IMG/VR virus record: IMGVR_UViG_3300029557_000069
Span: 1 to 5,068 of that record
DNA: 5,068 bases
Strand: one strand, 5' to 3'
From: a virus
Under the pieces are notes generated by a model. That model was given only the letters and a program-made list of their open reading frames with translations, searched no databases and was not told where the DNA came from. Position numbers and translations under genes: made by a program. This document shows positions 1 to 5,068 of this stretch, one piece after another. Numbering within the stretch: the first letter of the stretch is position 1; every line of letters begins with the position of its first letter.

Positions 1-842
1 GGGTCTCTTCTATTACTGGTAACAGTGTTCCTAATGACGCCACAGCGTCCTCTTTTCAACTTTATGCCGATTTATCTAGCGTTAGTTCTGCCACTATTAG
101 CTCTTTGCGCACAGCTTTTCAGATGCAGAAATTCTATGAACGCCTTGCTCGAGGTGGTAGTCGGTATACAGAAGTGCTTCGCTCTTTCTTTGGCGTAGTT
201 TCTCCTGATGCTCGTCTTCAGCGCCCTGAGTTCCTCGGCTCTTTCACTAAAATGGTTAACATCAATCCAATAGCTCAGACTTCTGCAACCGACGTCACTT
301 CTCCGCAAGGCAATCTTTCCGCTTATGGTGTCACTGCTGCTAAATTCAATGGTTTTACAAAGTCTTTTGTTGAACATGGCTATGTTTTAGGTTTTGTCTG
401 TGCTCGTGCTGACCTCACTTATCAGCAGGGTATTAATAAAATGTGGCTTCGCTCTACTGTTTATGATTTTTATTGGCCTACGTTCGCTCATCTCGGCGAA
501 CAGGCTATTGAGCTTCGTGAACTTTATGCTCAAGGCAATGCAGCTGATACTACTGTTTTTGGCTATCAAGAGCGTTACGCTGAATATCGTTATAAGCCCT
601 CGCAGATTACTGGTAAATTTCGCAGTTCTGTAACTGGTGGCTCTTTAGATAAGTGGCATCTTTCGCAGTTCTTCAAAAATGCCCCTACCTTAAATGAGGA
701 GTTTATAGTCGAAAATCCGCCCATAGAACGTATTGTAGCTGTTACTAGCGAGCCTGAGTTTTTACTTGATGTAGGATTCCGTTATACAACAGTTCGTCCT
801 ATGCCCATGTTCGGTACACCTGGTCTTGTTGACCATTTTTAA
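1..842 (+). CDS. Major capsid protein (Microviridae F/VP1 family), 3' portion. The codon frame starts at nt 3 and the stop TAA is at 840-842.
   Basis: Same frame as the 4132.. portion once the 99-nt terminal overlap is taken into account. Contains LRTAFQMQKFYERLARGGSRYTEVLRSFFG, a conserved microvirus F-protein type motif, and a long C-terminal region ending ...MFGTPGLVDHF. The stop overlaps the SD of the next gene (ttTAAGGAG). Confidence 0.9.
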   Translation, partial: VSSITGNSVPNDATASSFQLYADLSSVSSATISSLRTAFQMQKFYERLARGGSRYTEVLRSFFGVVSPDARLQRPEFLGSFTKMVNINPIAQTSATDVTSPQGNLSAYGVTAAKFNGFTKSFVEHGYVLGFVCARADLTYQQGINKMWLRSTVYDFYWPTFAHLGEQAIELRELYAQGNAADTTVFGYQERYAEYRYKPSQITGKFRSSVTGGSLDKWHLSQFFKNAPTLNEEFIVENPPIERIVAVTSEPEFLLDVGFRYTTVRPMPMFGTPGLVDHF

Positions 843-1588: not shown

Positions 1589-1828
1589 ATGTCTAACAAA
1601 ACTACTATGATTTTAACTTTTATTGTTTCTGTCGTTGTACCTTTTATCCAGGAGGTTGTTGACCTTATTGAAGCTCTTAAAGGTAGAGCTTCTTCGAATA
1701 CTGTTACTGCTAAAAAAGTTGCTTCGGACTTTCAAGCCGATGTTGCGCAGCTTGTTGAGCCAGTTGCTAATAAGAATGATTCTAAAAAAACTAGCCGTTT
1801 TTTCGGTTCTTGGAGGGATGCTAAATGA
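1589..1828 (+). CDS. Small protein with a single N-terminal transmembrane helix, 79 aa. Unknown function; candidate membrane/lysis protein.
   Basis: ATG 1589 with SD AAGGAG at 1574-1579. Starts 5 nt after the VP2 stop. The stop TGA (1826-1828) overlaps the ATG (1825-1827) of the next gene. N-terminus TMILTFIVSVVVPFI is hydrophobic (~17 aa, with Pro), followed by a charged hydrophilic tail. Confidence 0.6.
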   Translation: MSNKTTMILTFIVSVVVPFIQEVVDLIEALKGRASSNTVTAKKVASDFQADVAQLVEPVANKNDSKKTSRFFGSWRDAK

Positions 1829-1935
1829 GGCGACGTCGCTTATCTAAACGAGGTTCTCGCCGTCTTTTTCGGCGTACTTCCAGATCTCGTCGTAGAAATT
1901 TTAAAAGAGTAGGACGAGGTGGATTTAGGATTTGA
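1825..1935 (+). CDS. Arginine-rich small DNA-binding/packaging protein (J-like / gokushovirus ORF8-like), 36 aa: MRRRRLSKRGSRRLFRRTSRSRRRNFKRVGRGGFRI.
   Basis: ATG 1825 with GGAGG at 1812-1816. 17 of 36 residues are Arg/Lys, a composition typical of microvirus J-type DNA-condensing proteins. Translationally coupled to the upstream gene through an ATGA overlap. Too short to appear in the ORF track. Confidence 0.7.
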   Translation: MRRRRLSKRGSRRLFRRTSRSRRRNFKRVGRGGFRI

Positions 1936-1960
1936 CATTCTGATTTAATCCTGATACAAT
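1932..1960 (+). promoter_or_regulatory. Sigma70-type promoter: -35 TTGACA (1932-1937), 17-nt spacer, -10 TACAAT (1955-1960). Drives the replication initiator gene.
   Basis: Perfect -35 hexamer, optimal 17-nt spacing and a 5/6 -10 hexamer. The predicted TSS at ~1967 lies just before SD AGGTGA (1967-1972) and ATG 1978. Confidence 0.7.
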
Positions 1961-1977: not shown

Positions 1978-2889
1978 ATGGTTTGTTATAATCCTGTTCT
2001 TATGTACCCGGTTGAAGGAGCGATTACTAAAAATGGGAAGCAACATTATAGTTTTTACGGTAGCCTTGCCTCTCATCCCGAACTTTCTGGTGATAGCCGT
2101 TTTATTCGTTGCGCTTGCAAGCAGTGTATTGGTTGTCGTCTCGAAAATAGCAGACAATGGGCTGTCCGTTCTGTTCACGAAGCCCGTTCTTCGTCTTCTG
2201 CTTATTTCGTTACTTGCACTTTTGATAATTTTCACTTGCCTAAAGATTTGAGTTTAAGCAAGAAATTTCATCAAACGTTCATGAAAAATCTTCGTCGTGA
2301 GTATGGTAATGGTATTCGCTTTCTTGGCTGTGGTGAATATGGTGAATTGCATGCTCGTCCCCATTATCATTACATTTTGTTTAATATTGATTTTGATGAC
2401 AAAATTTTTCGGTTCCGTACAGATGGTTATAATACTTATACTTCTGCTCGTTTTGCCAAGGTTTGGAAATATGGTATGCATCTTATTGGTGAGTTTAGTT
2501 TTGACGCTGCTGCCTATGTCGCCCGTTACATAGTTAAAAAGCAGACTGGCAAAAATGCTGAGTCTCACTATAAAGGTCGTACCCCTGAATTTATGGTTGC
2601 ATCTAATCGCCCTGGTATTGGTGGAAAATGGCTTGCTGAGCATGGTGAAGAATGTTATTCTAACGATTATGTTGTCATTAACGGTAAAAAGATGCGTCCG
2701 CCTCGTTATTACGATAAGAAATTCGATGAAACGCATCCTCACTGGATGGAGTTTATTCGCAATAACCGTATTGAGAAGATGCTGCATAACTTGGAGAACA
2801 ATACTTTCGAGCGATTGATTGATCGTTGTCGTGTTCAGGAAGGAAAGTATAAATACTTTCTTGGTAGAAAACTTGACAAGGTATTATGA
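1978..2889 (+). CDS. Rolling-circle replication initiator protein (VP4 / gene A-like, HUH endonuclease), 303 aa from ATG 1978. An in-frame GTG at 1969 is an alternative start.
   Basis: SD AGGTGA 5 nt upstream of ATG 1978. HUH motif in ELHARPHYHYILFN (HYH at 2362-2370). Catalytic two-tyrosine motif AAAYVARYIVKK (Tyr codons at 2515-2517 and 2527-2529, YxxxY spacing as in phiX174 A protein YVAKY). N-terminal Cys cluster RCACKQCIGCRLENSRQWAVR typical of gokushovirus VP4. Confidence 0.93.
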   Translation: MVCYNPVLMYPVEGAITKNGKQHYSFYGSLASHPELSGDSRFIRCACKQCIGCRLENSRQWAVRSVHEARSSSSAYFVTCTFDNFHLPKDLSLSKKFHQTFMKNLRREYGNGIRFLGCGEYGELHARPHYHYILFNIDFDDKIFRFRTDGYNTYTSARFAKVWKYGMHLIGEFSFDAAAYVARYIVKKQTGKNAESHYKGRTPEFMVASNRPGIGGKWLAEHGEECYSNDYVVINGKKMRPPRYYDKKFDETHPHWMEFIRNNRIEKMLHNLENNTFERLIDRCRVQEGKYKYFLGRKLDKVL

Positions 2890-2901
2890 CTGTGTTATCA
2901 T
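2873..2901 (+). promoter_or_regulatory. Sigma70-type promoter: -35 TTGACA (2873-2878), 17-nt spacer, -10 TATCAT (2896-2901).
   Basis: Perfect -35, optimal spacing, 5/6 -10. Sits at the 3' end of Rep, immediately upstream of SD AAGGAAG and ATG 2920. Confidence 0.6.
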
Positions 2902-2919: not shown

Positions 2920-3159
2920 ATGCTTATTAGCGAATTTGAAGCTGTTAAAAATTTTTGTCTTAATCGCGGTATTTCTTTTACTTTTAAATTTCGTGGTAGT
3001 AAATATGCCGCTTATCGACTTAAGTCTGATTGCGACAAAGTTATTCGTCTTGACAATGATTACTTTGTCATCAATAACACGTTGCATCTTATGATTCGTC
3101 GCTACTTAATTGCGTTTAGAAAAGGAGATGGTTCTTCTGAGACTTTATTCCATTTATGA
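2920..3159 (+). CDS. Hypothetical protein, 79 aa (MLISEFEAVKNFCLNRGISFTFKFRGSKYAAYRLKSDCDKVIRLDNDYFVINNTLHLMIRRYLIAFRKGDGSSETLFHL).
   Basis: ATG 2920 (GTG at 2917 also in frame) with SD AAGGAAG at 2909-2915 and an upstream promoter. Codon usage resembles the other genes. No recognisable motif. Confidence 0.5.
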   Translation: MLISEFEAVKNFCLNRGISFTFKFRGSKYAAYRLKSDCDKVIRLDNDYFVINNTLHLMIRRYLIAFRKGDGSSETLFHL

Positions 3160-3418
3160 TTCCAAGGCTGAACAGTTCAGCCCTCCACAAGCTTACCACA
3201 ATGACATGCTTGCTTTAAGAGGATTTGAGAGTATTGTTAATGATGATAAAATGCTTATTAAAAAGTATCCTGAAGATTTTAGTATTTATTATGTCGGTAA
3301 CCTTGGCGATACTGATGGCCGTTATTATATTGAGCATTGTGACGAATCCCGCATACCTGTATTGGTTGGTCGCGCAGTAGATTATGTCCAGGATATTGAC
3401 AATATTCCTACCAAATGA
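3128..3418 (+). CDS. Hypothetical protein, ~96 aa. The start is uncertain (ATG 3128, or TTG 3110). It overlaps the preceding ORF in the +1 frame.
   Basis: The ORF opens after the TAA at 3107-3109. ATG 3128 directly abuts AAGGAG at 3122-3127 (zero spacer, so poor initiation geometry). TTG 3110 has no SD. The coding-like composition continues to TGA 3416-3418, just upstream of the terminator. It could also be the downstream part of a frameshifted gene. Confidence 0.4.
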   Translation: MVLLRLYSIYDSKAEQFSPPQAYHNDMLALRGFESIVNDDKMLIKKYPEDFSIYYVGNLGDTDGRYYIEHCDESRIPVLVGRAVDYVQDIDNIPTK

Positions 3419-3424: not shown

Positions 3425-3446
3425 AACAAAGAGCGTATCAGAAAAA

Positions 3447-3477
3447 GGACGGTCTCGAAAGAGATCGCCCTTTTTTT
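3447..3477 (+). terminator. Rho-independent terminator: stem GGACGGTCTC / GAGATCGCCC with a GAAA tetraloop, followed by T7.
   Basis: 10-bp GC-rich stem (8 Watson-Crick pairs, 1 G-U, 1 mismatch), GNRA-type loop, a run of 7 T at 3471-3477, and an A5 tract upstream at 3442-3446. Located in the intergenic gap after the stop at 3418. Confidence 0.75.
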
Positions 3478-3510
3478 GTACGCCACGCCCGCCGCGTCTA
3501 GGCGCGTACG
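3478..3510. promoter_or_regulatory. GC-rich dyad-symmetry island (GTACGC...CGCG TCTAGG CGCG...GCGTAC) between the terminator and the SD of the VP3-like gene. Candidate operator or origin element.
   Basis: About 30 nt at roughly 75% GC in an otherwise AT-rich genome. The outer arms GTACGC (3478-3483) and GCGTAC (3504-3509) are reverse complements. The inner CGCG/CGCG arms flank TCTAGG. Confidence 0.35.
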
Positions 3511-3525
3511 AAAGGAGGTGAAACT

Positions 3526-4008
3526 ATGAAATTTAAGACAGCTTATGATCCTGCAGAAGAACATGATCATTGTGGCATTGAATTTACTATGCCGTCTCTT
3601 GCAGTTCAGGACGAGAAAGATGAATCCGATATCAACTATATCGTTAATCGCTTTGCAGATGGTCAGAAAGGTATAGCTACTCTTGACCTGGGCGATAGCT
3701 CGCAGTACGCCTTCCTTCAATTTGGAGATGCAACGCTTCCTGGCGACTACAGCACTGCGCTCGAGCTTGTTTCTGGAGTTCGTGAAGAATTCTATAGTTT
3801 ACCCGCATACGTTCGAGCAAAATTTGGTCATGATCCTATGAATTTCATCAACCAATTGAACAATCCTGAAACGCTTGAATATCTCCAACGAGAAGGCTTG
3901 TACGATAGCGATTTATCTTTCAACGAACAACAACAGTCTGGTAGTAATAAACAAACAGAAGAAAAAAGTAACACTTCAACCCAAAATAAAGAAGAAACAC
4001 AAAAATAG
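3526..4008 (+). CDS. Putative internal scaffolding protein (VP3-like), acidic, 160 aa.
   Basis: ATG 3526 with a very strong SD AAGGAGGTG at 3512-3520 (5-nt spacer). Acidic composition (many D/E) and a low-complexity Q/S/N/K/E C-terminal tail. Its position immediately upstream of the capsid gene fits the gokushovirus VP3 size class (~150 aa). The product assignment is from position and composition only. Confidence 0.55.
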   Translation: MKFKTAYDPAEEHDHCGIEFTMPSLAVQDEKDESDINYIVNRFADGQKGIATLDLGDSSQYAFLQFGDATLPGDYSTALELVSGVREEFYSLPAYVRAKFGHDPMNFINQLNNPETLEYLQREGLYDSDLSFNEQQQSGSNKQTEEKSNTSTQNKEETQK

Positions 4009-4056
4009 GCGTCACCGAGCCAGTTACTTACTTGATGTAACTGGCGTAGGTGACGC
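4009..4056. other. Large two-helix hairpin: GCGTCACC-gag-CCAGTTAC-(loop ttacttgat)-GTAACTGG-cgta-GGTGACGC. Candidate origin / complementary-strand priming or packaging structure.
   Basis: Two perfect 8-bp helices (4009-4016 with 4049-4056; 4020-4027 with 4037-4044) separated by a small internal loop. A 9-nt apical loop contains ACTTGAT. Flanked by A-tracts on the + strand, which read as T-tracts on the minus strand. Confidence 0.6.
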
Positions 4057-4068
4057 AAAAATAATCTG

Positions 4069-4108
4069 AAACCTAATAATTGTTTGCTTTAGGTTAATTA
4101 TTAGGTTT
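4069..4108. other. AT-rich hairpin with a perfect 13-bp stem (AAACCTAATAATT / AATTATTAGGTTT) and a 14-nt loop, immediately upstream of the capsid gene SD.
   Basis: Exact reverse-complement arms at 4069-4081 and 4096-4108. The loop gtttgctttaggtt partly repeats the arm sequence (taggtt). Sits in the VP3-VP1 intergenic region. Confidence 0.55.
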
Positions 4109-4131
4109 ACACTTCAAAAGAAGGTGAAATA

Positions 4132-5068
4132 TTGGCTCGAAAAATTAGAGTTCGAGGTCATCGCTTTAGCGATGCTCCTGCAATGTACATGAGGAGAACA
4201 AAATTTGACCGCTCTCATGTTTATAAAACTACTTTTAATTCAGGTAAGCTTATACCTGTTTTTGTTGATGAGATTTTGCCTGGCGATACTACTCGTATGT
4301 CTGTTAATTACTTTGCTCGTCTTTCAACTCCTGTTAAGCCTATTATGGATAACATTTATCTTGATTGGTTTTTCTTTTTTGTTCCCAACCGTCTTGTTTG
4401 GGAACACTGGCAGAATTTTTGCTTTGAGCAGGAAGACCCTGATGACAGCACTGATTATGTCATTCCTACTGTTACCGCTCTTGGTAATACTGGTAACGCT
4501 TATACTGGCTCTCTTTGGGATTATTTCGGTTTGCCCGTAAACACTGATGGTAATCTGTCTGGAATTAACGCCCTTCCGTTTCGTGCCGTTTATCTTATTT
4601 GGAACGAATGGTTTAGAGATGAAAATTTACAGAAGTCCGTAAAGATTCAAAAAGGCGATACTAACGAAGTTTTGGATTCCTCTCGTTCCTCTGATCAGCC
4701 TTCTTGGGTGTTTACCTCAGACACTAGTGTAGTTCCTGGTCTTGCTTGTCCGCCTCGCGGTAAGCGTCATGACTATTTTACTTCTGCGCTTCCCTGGACC
4801 CAAAAGGGTCCTGGAGTAGAGATTCCTCTTGTTGGTAATGCTCCTGTTTATGCTCCTTCTTCTGCTAACGTGCAGAATCCTTCTACCGATGGTATACTAT
4901 ATACTTCTAATGCTGATATTTCTGGTTCCGCTCGCCTTGGTTATGCTCGTGCCGCTCGAGGTGGTAGTTGGGTCTCTTCTATTACTGGTAACAGTGTTCC
5001 TAATGACGCCACAGCGTCCTCTTTTCAACTTTATGCCGATTTATCTAGCGTTAGTTCTGCCACTATTA
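4132..5068 (+). CDS. Major capsid protein (Microviridae F/VP1 family), 5' portion. The gene runs across the circular junction, and 4970-5068 duplicates 1-99. The full protein is 559 aa (4132..4969 joined to 1..842).
   Basis: TTG start at 4132 with SD AAGGTG at 4121-4126 (5-nt spacer). A long ORF in frame 1 is continuous across the 4969/1 junction into frame 0 of the window start. Translation MARKIRVRGHRFSDAPAMYMRRTKFDRSHVYKTTFNSGKLIPVFVDE...LACPPRGKRHDYFTSALPWT...ARGGSW is typical of Microviridae capsid proteins. T-rich third codon positions match the other genes. Confidence 0.9.
   Translation, partial: MARKIRVRGHRFSDAPAMYMRRTKFDRSHVYKTTFNSGKLIPVFVDEILPGDTTRMSVNYFARLSTPVKPIMDNIYLDWFFFFVPNRLVWEHWQNFCFEQEDPDDSTDYVIPTVTALGNTGNAYTGSLWDYFGLPVNTDGNLSGINALPFRAVYLIWNEWFRDENLQKSVKIQKGDTNEVLDSSRSSDQPSWVFTSDTSVVPGLACPPRGKRHDYFTSALPWTQKGPGVEIPLVGNAPVYAPSSANVQNPSTDGILYTSNADISGSARLGYARAARGGSWVSSITGNSVPNDATASSFQLYADLSSVSSATI
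4970..5068. repeat. Terminal redundancy: 4970-5068 is identical to 1-99. This is the signature of a circular genome (unit length 4969 nt) linearised with an overlap.
   Basis: Exact 99/99 match by direct comparison of the two ends. The capsid reading frame is continuous across the implied junction. Confidence 0.95.

Follow-up and report, generated by a model that had tools for sequence, protein, structure and literature searches.

The compound hairpin directly downstream of the VP3 scaffold gene (hairpin 1) is probably the double-strand (viral-strand) rolling-circle origin of this gokushovirus and of Gokushovirinae generally. This reading is favored because its loop motif is invariant, its stem covaries and the element occurs in a single copy on the viral strand, and also because the element spans gokushoviruses of unrelated hosts and the Rep has catalytic motifs like those of phiX174 A. 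By analogy with the phiX174 nick site over 7 nt, we infer that the nick would fall between G4034 and A4035 in the apical loop.

Few ssDNA phages in gut, marine, and freshwater viromes are as abundant as gokushoviruses, and no mapped gokushovirus replication origin was found in the searchable literature. An element of about 50 nt with a predicted nick can be tested in cultivable carriers, i.e., EC6098-type Escherichia coli prophages, Chp2, and phiMH2K. If confirmed, it would join the CTTG/AT cleavage chemistry of phiX174 and pC194 (slashes within nick motifs mark the cut) to the stem-loop design found in origins of CRESS-DNA viruses and plasmids. In practical terms, it would be a non-coding marker by which to find, orient, and circularize gokushovirus genomes, would account for assemblies that break or form chimeras at the hairpin, and would provide a cis element for gokushovirus-based vectors or for recognition of satellites.

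Two hairpins in the VP3–VP1 spacer

The window, i.e., the whole 5,068-nt stretch of DNA analyzed, has a 99-nt terminal duplication and represents a circular gokushovirus genome of 4,969 nt. Its VP3–VP1 spacer is filled by two hairpins and has the length of 123 nt given in the preliminary description of this DNA, assuming that VP1 starts at TTG 4132, a start favored by in-frame indels and synonymous changes in relatives. The relevant features are as follows.

1978–2889, + strand: VP4 Rep, presumed trans-acting nickase (Pfam PF23343, 1.6e-15)
3526–4008, + strand: VP3 scaffold gene (Pfam Chlamy_scaf), whose stop codon adjoins hairpin 1
4009–4056, + strand: compound hairpin 1, candidate viral-strand (plus) origin element, from folding and covariance model R1
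4019–4045, + strand: inner hairpin, with the upper stem CAGTTAC/GTAACTG conserved in sequence and covarying pairs beneath
4028–4036, + strand: apical loop TTACTTGAT, 9 nt, with the predicted Rep cut between G4034 and A4035
4049–4056, + strand: GGTGACGC, local form of a (C/G)TGAC(A/G)C(C) box and also the 3′ arm of the outer stem
4069–4108, + strand: hairpin 2, perfect 13-bp A/T-rich stem with a 14-nt loop, from folding; lineage-specific
4120–4134, + strand: Shine-Dalgarno sequence GAAGGTGA and TTG start of VP1 (Pfam Phage_F), right edge of the spacer

Both hairpins are confirmed as real structures, at the positions first proposed for them. Folded as ssDNA, the 146-nt region reaches −29.5 kcal/mol, compared with −11.4 ± 2.6 for shuffled sequences (z = −6.9; 0 of 200 as good), and the value for the minus strand is similar (z about −6.9 on either strand). 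As RNA, the same region folds at −49.8 kcal/mol (z = −6.7). Folded singly, hairpin 1 has z = −8.4 and hairpin 2 has z = −6.0. An Rfam scan of 3900–4250 returned merely one meaningless sub-threshold snoRNA match.

Hairpin 1 consists of an 8-bp outer stem (GCGTCACC/GGTGACGC, 4009–4016/4049–4056), followed by an internal loop and then an inner stem (GCCAGTTAC/GTAACTGGC, 4019–4027/4037–4045) that has 9 bp and not the 8 bp previously counted. The sequence TTACTTGATGTAA formerly given as the apical loop does contain it, but extends 4 nt into the stem, the real loop being the 9-nt TTACTTGAT. The description of hairpin 2 as a 13-bp A/T-rich hairpin was accurate. The sequence CTTGATGTAACTG occurs once in the window, at 4031–4043. 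A second copy of the 12-mer TTACTTGATGTA, which had been put forward as a sign that the loop motif might be fortuitous, does exist at 762–773, where it encodes LLDV in VP1. This VP1 copy is itself a coincidence, because synonymous sites vary freely there in 144 relatives, and it poses no threat to the motif in hairpin 1.

The assignment of VP4 as a phiX-A-type two-tyrosine HUH Rep is borne out by its motifs. The HUH motif RPHYH (His129/His131, ~2362–2370) and the two-tyrosine motif YVARY (Tyr180/Tyr184, 2515–2529) are colinear with EYG..RLHFH (residues 254–269) and YVAKYVNKK (residues 343–351; Tyr343/Tyr347 region) of phiX174 A, and the catalytic motifs are conserved in A1. The VP4 gene contains no CTTGAT.

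Conservation and distribution of hairpin 1

The 25-mer core CCAGTTAC-TTACTTGAT-GTAACTGG is present exactly in more than 120 IMG/VR viral contigs. An identical core is found in a second lineage whose proteins have only ~53% (VP1), 35–40% (Rep), and 34% (VP3) amino-acid identity to those of this phage; there, all 16 bp of the element's stem are perfect, and the element is preceded by a separate canonical terminator. Across 60 relatives sampled by Rep alone, identity to the window is 98.3% for hairpin 1, compared with 84% for the flanking genes and 67–70% for third codon positions. In an anchored alignment of 33 diverse sequences, motif positions C, T, G, A, and T are invariant, as are box positions T43, G44, A45, and C46 in anchored alignments, and the TGAC(A/G)C box begins at a fixed distance of 17 nt past the predicted nick.

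The two parts of the stem behave differently. In the upper stem (CAGTT/AACTG), pairs 14-36 to 17-33 are nearly invariant, whereas lower-stem pairs covary, including pair 12-38 (AU 11, GC 10, CG 9) and pair 13-37 (AU 17, CG 15). Double-sided changes in the lower stem number 75, compared with 30 ± 4.5 in shuffles (0/500); 77% of cells are paired, compared with 26–43% when the partner is slid; and the covariation score is 0.293, compared with 0.121 for shuffled alignments, none of the 500 shuffles reaching the former value. The invariant loop, upper stem and box, together with the fixed nick–box spacing, thus suggest an architecture typical of a protein-recognized origin. The upstream arm GCGTCACC, complementary to the TGAC box, is lineage-specific, and constant base pairing of the box was rejected as a general feature, partner pairing being seen in ~6 of 23 lineages. 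Among the loci, the motif reads CTAGAT in five and CTTGTT in two; a search for co-evolution of Rep with these variants was uninformative, CTAGAT being present in at least two Rep clades.

In the window, covariance model R1 gives a single strong + strand match (64.9 bits, 4010–4061). Of 20 distant gokushoviruses chosen by Rep protein alone (Rep 40–45% identical), 19 also have a match to R1, always on the Rep-coding strand. Every oriented locus has the element on the Rep strand, with one element per genome unit, and contigs with two or three matches carry more than one genome copy. Further matches are found in the sediment gokushovirus L131, whose gene order differs, and in an E. coli gokushovirus prophage, where the element lies between VP3 and VP1 (59.8 bits). 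Motif and hairpin scans of the Chlamydia phage Chp2 reveal a hairpin with a 14-bp stem and the loop TCTACTTGAT, which R1 scores at only 11.8 bits. In phiMH2K, CTACTTGTTGTAA lies in the loop of an 11-bp hairpin, a weak match to the element; SpV4 and L184 gave no match to it.

The order of VP3 followed by the element is kept under other gene orders, as in L131, Chp2, the E. coli prophage, and others, and in typical gokushoviruses the element lies directly upstream of a small basic-protein gene. In dif-integrated prophages, it is internal and intact and thus independent of integration. A whole-genome megablast search of 5,426 E. coli genomes returned no match to this phage, which is therefore not an enterogokushovirus. 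The open-access literature searched yielded neither a description of the element nor any occurrence of CTTGATGTAAC; an earlier mention of the Chp2 stem-loop outside that literature is possible.

Among 185,579 bacterial species representatives, the hairpin 21-mer occurs only in L131 and in a Micavibrio chromosome (L132). L131 is a phage-sized contig binned into a metagenome-assembled genome (MAG). The Micavibrio copy is a complete element with no microvirus genes within 8 kb; the island also carries a second origin-like hairpin ~230 nt upstream of the element and a tyrosine integrase. The ~50-nt hairpin-plus-box might conceivably be a portable origin module for gokushovirus Reps, orphan chromosomal copies such as that of Micavibrio being Rep-less hitchhikers or satellites replicated and packaged in trans, but we consider this improbable. 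If it were true, the element would also mark breakpoints of gene-order rearrangement, since the linkage of VP3 to the element persists when the downstream content changes. Two long metagenome contigs (L214 and L250) have 20-nt pattern matches with neither the 5′ arm nor phage genes, and these are probably chance matches, as the database is very large. In GenBank KT264819, both hairpins are absent, which may be an assembly artifact, because contigs of this phage group often break or become chimeric at the hairpin.

Relation to known origins and a candidate mechanism

As the preliminary description had recognized, the loop motif ACTTG/AT equals the core of the phiX174 cleavage site CAACTTG/ATATT, here read from J02482 (rep_origin annotated at 4306). 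Compared with the cleavage sequence CAACTTG/ATA, 7 of 10 nt are identical on the viral strand and the flanking positions differ. The phiX174/Bullavirinae origin (30 bp, CAACTTG/ATATTAATAACACTATAGACCAC, gene A) belongs to the same virus family and is paired with a homologous two-tyrosine HUH Rep; like the element, it lies on the viral strand in a single copy and spans ~28 nt from the motif to a conserved 3′ box. Beyond ACTTGAT, the likeness to the 30-bp origin is slight, consisting of scattered matches and a GAC at +18 to +20, perhaps by chance. Neither the A/T-rich spacer nor the key sequence of phiX174 is retained here, where the 3′ box is TGAC(A/G)C. Moreover, the phiX174 origin is located within the Rep gene A and forms no hairpin, whereas here an intergenic hairpin after VP3, itself conserved and covarying, carries the motif in its loop. 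The first reading of this DNA had missed both this intergenic, hairpin-borne location and the identity of the 3′ arm of the outer stem with the conserved box.

The plasmid pC194 is cut at CTTG/ATA. Its origin carries TCTTGATAAT (PMC7072734), and origins of the pC194/pUB110 family (nick sequence CTTGATA) have CTTGAT in common with the element, in pC194 as TTCTTATCTTGATAATAAGG, and use an HUH Rep related to phiX174 A. Unlike the phage element, these origins belong to plasmid replicons with Rep_1 (one Tyr plus Glu) and copy-number control, and have other flanking recognition sequences, with neither the CAGTT/AACTG stem nor the TGAC box.

In stem-loop origins of CRESS-DNA viruses and plasmids, an inverted repeat presents a single-stranded nick site near a Rep-binding sequence (PMC5714925). 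The element shares this general design with the origins of circo-, gemini-, and nanoviruses and of the pT181 and pMV158 plasmids, although those have unrelated loop motifs (e.g., the nonanucleotide TAATATT/AC), different Rep families, and typically repeated iterons instead of a single box. Features of the HUH-Rep stem-loop class that are found here are an inverted repeat, a conserved strand-specific loop, compensatory stem changes, one copy per replicon, location on the displaced and packaged strand, and a Rep gene in cis. As for Rep-binding repeats, there is the single TGAC(A/G)C box at a fixed distance; the TTAGGTT repeats in hairpin 2 are poorly conserved, and were rejected as iterons, the copy in its loop being variable. 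Reekeekee- and roodoodooviruses likewise have intergenic hairpins in which the loop is conserved and the stem shows compensatory changes; the authors could not assign a function, discussed possible minus-strand initiation, and reported no nick-motif match (PMC9865509); these are other clades, with sequences other than that of hairpin 1.

The following mechanism may be proposed. The inverted repeat would extrude in the supercoiled replicative form, exposing the loop TTACTTGAT on the + strand, and VP4 would recognize the upper stem CAGTTAC/GTAACTG and the TGAC(A/G)C box. Rep would then cut between G4034 and A4035 and become tyrosine-linked to the 5′ end, while a host polymerase would extend the 3′-OH. 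After one round, the second tyrosine would cut the regenerated site, and the displaced strand would be circularized and then packaged. Divergence of Rep to 35–40% identity with an identical site would be explained equally well by a universally conserved host factor. This point counts against the origin reading, as do the CTAGAT and CTTGTT variants of the motif, the lack of a match in SpV4 and L184, the KT264819 record, the Micavibrio copy, and the differences from the phiX174 origin.

Alternative readings and hairpin 2

One or both hairpins could instead be complementary-strand (minus) origins at which host primase, PriA, or RNA polymerase primes the conversion of ssDNA to double strand, although this is unlikely. 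Stable hairpins on the packaged strand within the main non-coding region are a feature of that class, and paired adjacent hairpins recall the layouts of M13 and G4. Hairpins of other microvirus clades have been discussed in this way (PMC9865509), and hairpin 2 is structurally conserved and lineage-specific, as a host-adapted signal would be. For hairpin 1, on the other hand, phages of Chlamydia, E. coli, and gut, freshwater, and sediment bacteria have a loop and an upper stem that agree exactly or almost exactly, which argues against a minus origin because host priming signals are normally host-specific; its loop also matches the Rep cleavage motif. The CTG of the linker (a G4-type start site) is A in most relatives, inspection of both loops did not reveal TAGCGT (ssoA CS-6), and neither sequence similarity to the phiX174 n′, G4, and M13 origins nor a defining motif of these was found, nothing positive linking hairpin 2 to priming. 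Thus, of the origin or priming role first suggested for the spacer, the origin role of hairpin 1 is strongly supported by comparison, whereas complementary-strand priming has gained no positive evidence. The sequence invariance of hairpin 1 reveals recognition and not the recognizing protein. Instead of being the initiation nick site, the element might be bound by a different phage protein (the ORF8/J-like DNA-binding protein, VP5, or the procapsid) or serve it as a packaging signal, or might act in termination only, which would be compatible with its position just 5′ of the small basic-protein gene in typical gokushoviruses. The ACTTG/AT match and the Rep motifs nevertheless point to Rep, and phiX174 lacks a separate packaging site and couples packaging to the activity of the origin and Rep, so that a role of this kind is rated as having little chance of being correct.

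A function in RNA, either as terminators or 3′-end stabilizers of VP3 transcripts or as a 5′ structure controlling VP1 translation, is very unlikely. In its favor, the region folds just as strongly as RNA, 11 nt separate the end of hairpin 2 from the VP1 ribosome-binding site, and about half of the one-sided changes in hairpin 2 are G:T (G:U in RNA). However, in agreement with the earlier view that these are not canonical terminators, no T-run follows hairpin 1 (AAAAATAATCTG) or hairpin 2 (ACACTTC) on the + strand, and the terminator scan calls neither, finding instead a canonical intrinsic terminator at 3439–3478 plus T7. In addition, other lineages have a terminator immediately upstream of the element, and a loop invariant across lineages of 35–53% protein identity would be needless for a terminator. 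Integration at dif is known for some gokushoviruses (PMC7062461), and in enterogokushoviruses the phage dif motif lies between VP2 and VP5 (PMC7062461); in L237 and L240, the prophage end is ~110 nt from the element. A recombination site of the attP type, dif-like for XerCD or a target of another recombinase, is still extremely unlikely: no dif-like motif (28-bp, 11-6-11) occurs within 3 mismatches in the window, E. coli and gut prophages carry the element internally with the dif junctions elsewhere, its 21-mer is nearly absent from the bacterial species representatives scanned and the phage has no match in E. coli genomes, and the lytic Chp2 has the element. A promoter was also rejected, the only candidate being a weak 9/12 match at 4106–4133 from which transcription would begin inside VP1; the TGACAC box is similar to a -35 hexamer, but its spacing is kept to the nick motif and not to any -10.

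The two hairpins had been treated as one unit, which comparison does not uphold. The expected conservation in relatives applies to hairpin 1, with its conserved loop, covarying stem, and wide distribution, whereas hairpin 2 was not found in lineages other than that of this phage. Hairpin 2 thus stands apart as a structured element specific to this lineage, for which the candidate roles are a complementary-strand initiation signal, an accessory site for Rep or a host factor, and an mRNA element before VP1. The closest analogy is with complementary-strand origins of ssDNA phages (phiX174 n′/PriA, G4 oric, and the M13 minus origin), and hairpin 2 may possibly be a complementary-strand priming site. 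Comparison of G:T with other mismatches (17 against ~19) did not discriminate between action at the RNA and DNA levels. Among the 60 Rep-sampled relatives, hairpin 2 shows 91% identity; it has one covarying pair (T:A 35, G:C 17) and, in L168, a compensatory indel.

Genome organization and the VP3-VP1 spacer

The window holds the whole genome of a gokushovirus, assembled in circular form. Its ends share an exact direct repeat of 99 nt inside VP1 (window 1-99 and 4970-5068), which is an overlap from circular assembly, so the true genome length is 4,969 nt. The + strand carries every gene:

TTG 4132 across the ends to 842, + strand: VP1, capsid
855-1583, + strand: VP2
1589-1828, + strand: 79-aa ORF
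1978-2889, + strand: VP4, HUH Rep (Pfam PF23343)
3110-3418, + strand: VP5
3526-4008, + strand: VP3, scaffold

About ten GenBank genomes named 'human gut gokushovirus' or 'Microviridae sp.' are ~85% identical to the window, and no whole-phage similarity was found in E. coli genomes. An unannotated, arginine-rich ORF of 36 codons (window 1825-1935, + strand; product MRRRRLSKRGSRRLFRRTSRSRRRNFKRVGRGGFRI), whose ATG overlaps the stop codon of the 79-aa ORF (ATGA), resembles the DNA-binding protein of ORF8/J type encoded ahead of Rep in other gokushoviruses; the GenBank relatives examined carry no annotation for it. Near-consensus sigma-70-type promoters precede VP4 (TTGACA-17-TACAAT, window 1932-1960) and VP5 (TTGACA-17-TATCAT, window 2873-2901).

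TTG 4132, behind GAAGGTGA, is the apparent start codon of VP1, and window 4132-4188 adds a basic N-terminal extension, ARKIRVRGHRFSDAPAMY, before the usual MRR.. start. Between TTG 4132 and the first ATG, relatives differ by a 3-nt indel that keeps the frame and by synonymous changes. With VP1 starting at this TTG, the spacer length of 123 nt holds. The VP1 start differs between GenBank records.

Both hairpins recognized in the preliminary description are present in this spacer. Hairpin 1 (4009-4056) consists of an outer stem of 8 bp and an inner stem of 9 bp, the latter capped by a 9-nt loop, TTACTTGAT. In hairpin 2 (4069-4108), a perfect A/T stem spans 13 bp. The region is much more stably folded than its shuffled counterparts (z about -6.9 for DNA of either strand, -6.7 for RNA). 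Hairpin 1 is flanked by copies of an 8-nt direct repeat, CAAAAATA (window 4000-4007 and 4056-4063), which could have arisen by chance in A-rich sequence or could record how the element was acquired.

Conservation and covariation of hairpin 1

An exact search with the 25-nt core of hairpin 1 matches at least 120 viral contigs. When genomes are sampled by Rep protein alone, so that the hairpin does not bias selection, the exact 25-mer is present in 49 of 60 close relatives and 1-2-base variants, some of them compensatory (GACAGTTAC/GTAACTGTC), in seven; in the remaining four, the contig either stops at the hairpin or is a chimera there. Across these 60 genomes, identity to the window is 98.3% for hairpin 1 versus 84% for VP3 and VP1, with 67-70% at third and 91-95% at second codon positions.

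Assemblies of this group are often chimeric or broken exactly at hairpin 1. Three contigs (L139, L144 and L149) end at the hairpin, and a 5,210-nt IMG/VR contig (L140) is an inverted chimera with an Illumina adapter, AGATCGGAAGAGC, joined within the outer stem. It is therefore plausible that the absence of both hairpins from the GenBank 'complete genome' KT264819 (L009) is an assembly artefact.

About one-sixth of the 25-nt-core matches listed come from a second lineage, in which the flanks are quite different and the proteins have diverged (identity to the window ~53% for VP1, 35-40% for Rep, 34% for VP3 and 25-29% for VP5). The element likewise lies between VP3 and VP1 there, the core is identical, and the stem is a perfect 16 bp, with paired GGAA/TTCC where the window has an internal loop.

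Simple hairpin and motif scans detect the element in 17 of 20 more distant Rep-sampled genomes (Rep 40-45% identical), and R1, a covariance model derived from 33 diverse copies, detects it in 19 of these 20, every time on the Rep-coding strand. In Chlamydia phage Chp2, a hairpin with a 14-bp stem and the loop TCTACTTGAT lies between VP3 and ORF8; in Bdellovibrio phage phiMH2K, an 11-bp hairpin that lies between Vp5 and a DNA-binding-protein gene displays CTACTTGTTGTAA in its loop, a weak match of 14 bits. The element was matched in 6 of 5,426 E. coli genomes. In an enterogokushovirus prophage adjoining hipBA in the E. coli C5 chromosome (NZ_CP010122; locus L314, 4376-8662), it scores 59.8 bits between VP3 and VP1, in the gene order of the window (Rep-VP5-VP3-[element]-VP1-VP2). 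A bacterial-genome scan also found it in a 4.5-kb gokushovirus contig of a sediment MAG, whose genes are ordered differently (VP4-VP5-VP1-VP2-VP3-[element]-small basic ORF). Among the matches listed from a generic-pattern metagenome scan, most are phage-sized contigs (about 1-6 kb), whose names suggest gut and various environmental samples. No element was found in SpV4 or in one distant Rep-sampled contig (L184). Overall, these comparisons indicate that hairpin 1 is a feature of most of Gokushovirinae.

A complete copy (62 bits) also occurs in the chromosome of a Micavibrio sp. MAG (L132, 56-kb contig), and the same strand carries a second origin-like hairpin ~230 nt upstream (stem of 13 bp, loop TATTTCCTTGTCT, followed by TGACAG). 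The two hairpins (5962-6007 and 6218-6270) sit in an island with a tyrosine integrase, with no microvirus genes within 8 kb.

When all copies are anchored on CTTGAT, a gap-free consensus is obtained: ..CAGTT(AC) / (C/T)TAC-T(T/A)GAT / GTAACTG.., seven variable bases, then (C/G)TGAC(A/G)C(C). The loop motif, upper stem and TGAC box are invariant or nearly so; natural variants of the loop motif are CTAGAT and CTTGTT. The lower stem varies in a compensatory manner (pair 12-38: AU 11, GC 10, CG 9; pair 13-37: AU 17, CG 15), with 75 double-sided changes versus 30 +/- 4.5 in shuffles (0/500) and 77% paired cells versus 26-43% with the partner slid. In the window, the outer 3' arm, GGTGACGC, is the TGAC box, and the 5' arm that pairs with it, GCGTCACC, is an addition specific to this lineage; elsewhere the box is unpaired in most lineages and paired with a downstream partner in a few. 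The combination of an invariant sequence with a covarying stem indicates that selection acts on both structure and sequence, the latter in a strand-specific manner, which is the signature of a putative hairpin-presented protein recognition site.

A candidate Rep origin and its alternatives

The best reading of hairpin 1, as proposed in the preliminary description, is a candidate rolling-circle Rep origin, a reading well supported by the loop match, the Rep motifs, the conservation and the single copy, which lies on the viral strand. ACTTG|AT is common to the loop and the phiX174 cleavage site, which reads CAACTTG|ATATTAATAACACTATAGACCAC in J02482 (rep_origin at 4306), confirming the match first noticed. 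The pC194 origin is cut at CTTG|ATA. That origin contains TCTTGATAAT (PMC7072734). The assignment of VP4 as a phiX-A-type two-tyrosine HUH Rep is upheld by PF23343 and by alignment of its EYG..RPHYH and YVARYIVKK with EYG..RLHFH and YVAKYVNKK (residues 343-351, two catalytic tyrosines) of phiX174 A. By analogy, the nick would fall between G4034 and A4035. The element would thus be a rolling-circle origin with a phiX174/pC194-type cleavage motif on a stem-loop, beside a box at fixed distance, and this candidate gokushovirus origin is directly testable in cultivable systems.

Beyond the 7-mer, likeness to phiX174 is slight (GAC at +18 to +20). Because the phiX174 origin lies inside gene A without a hairpin, the hairpin-borne, intergenic element here is not a strict member of the phiX174 origin family. 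The initial caution that a second TTACTTGATGTA in VP1 (762-773) could make the loop match fortuitous does not hold: this copy encodes LLDV and its synonymous sites vary freely in 144 relatives, so it is itself a chance occurrence in this one genome.

A complementary-strand origin, the other function initially proposed, is possible in principle, but no positive evidence for a priming site was found for either hairpin. For hairpin 1 it disagrees with the conservation across hosts: phages with hosts as varied as Chlamydia, E. coli and uncultured bacteria of gut, freshwater and sediment share the sequence, and a phage-encoded partner would account for this more easily than a host priming factor would. 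Alternatively, hairpin 1 may act as a packaging signal or be recognized by a different phage protein. A terminator is unlikely; as originally remarked, no T-run follows either hairpin, an invariant loop would be needless, and genuine terminators are located elsewhere, the only canonical one in the genome in the VP5-VP3 spacer (3439-3478 plus T7, with an A-run and a G+C stem) and, in the second lineage, a separate textbook one (GATCGCCCGC..GCGGCGATC plus T9) upstream of the element. An attachment site is also unlikely: a dif-like motif was not found in the window, and the element is internal in dif-integrated prophages, lying between VP3 and VP1 in the E. coli prophage, where the phage dif motif is between VP2 and VP5 (PMC7062461). 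In the gut prophage of L237 and L240, a sequence like a Firmicutes dif site follows ~110 nt past the element.

A search of open-access full text found neither a gokushovirus origin nor the loop motif described, and CTTGATGTAAC occurs in none of the texts searched; the original Chp2, Chp4 and SpV4 papers, outside this search, may mention the Chp2 stem-loop. Conserved intergenic hairpins were described in 2022 in two other microvirus clades, with no function assigned by the authors (PMC9865509), and the E. coli gokushovirus EC6098 was revived without mention of an origin or hairpin (PMC7062461).

Hairpin 2 and neighboring sequences

Hairpin 2 is present throughout the window's lineage, where its identity of 91% is similar to that of first and second codon positions; it ends 11 nt before the VP1 ribosome-binding site. 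One pair clearly covaries (T:A 35, G:C 17, with intermediates), and one genome has a compensatory one-base insertion on both arms. The second lineage and all distant ones lack hairpin 2 and have other hairpins or none after the element, indicating that hairpin 2 is a separate lineage-specific element. About half of its one-sided changes are G:T, so that DNA- and RNA-level functions are indistinguishable; it may signal complementary-strand initiation, provide an accessory binding site or act as an element of the mRNA.

Two contigs from human-gut metagenomes (L237 1-3300, contig of 23 kb; L240 1-300, contig of 164 kb) contain the end of a gokushovirus prophage in the order VP3, candidate origin element, ~110 nt, TTATATATATTATGTAAA, then bacterial genes, and both stop inside or at this prophage; TTATATATATTATGTAAA resembles a Firmicutes dif site. 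In a second-lineage contig (L033, ~1590-1680), CGGGTAC-type direct repeats flank the hairpin on either side, and TGTTTGCTTT, located downstream of it, is also present in the loop of the window's hairpin 2.
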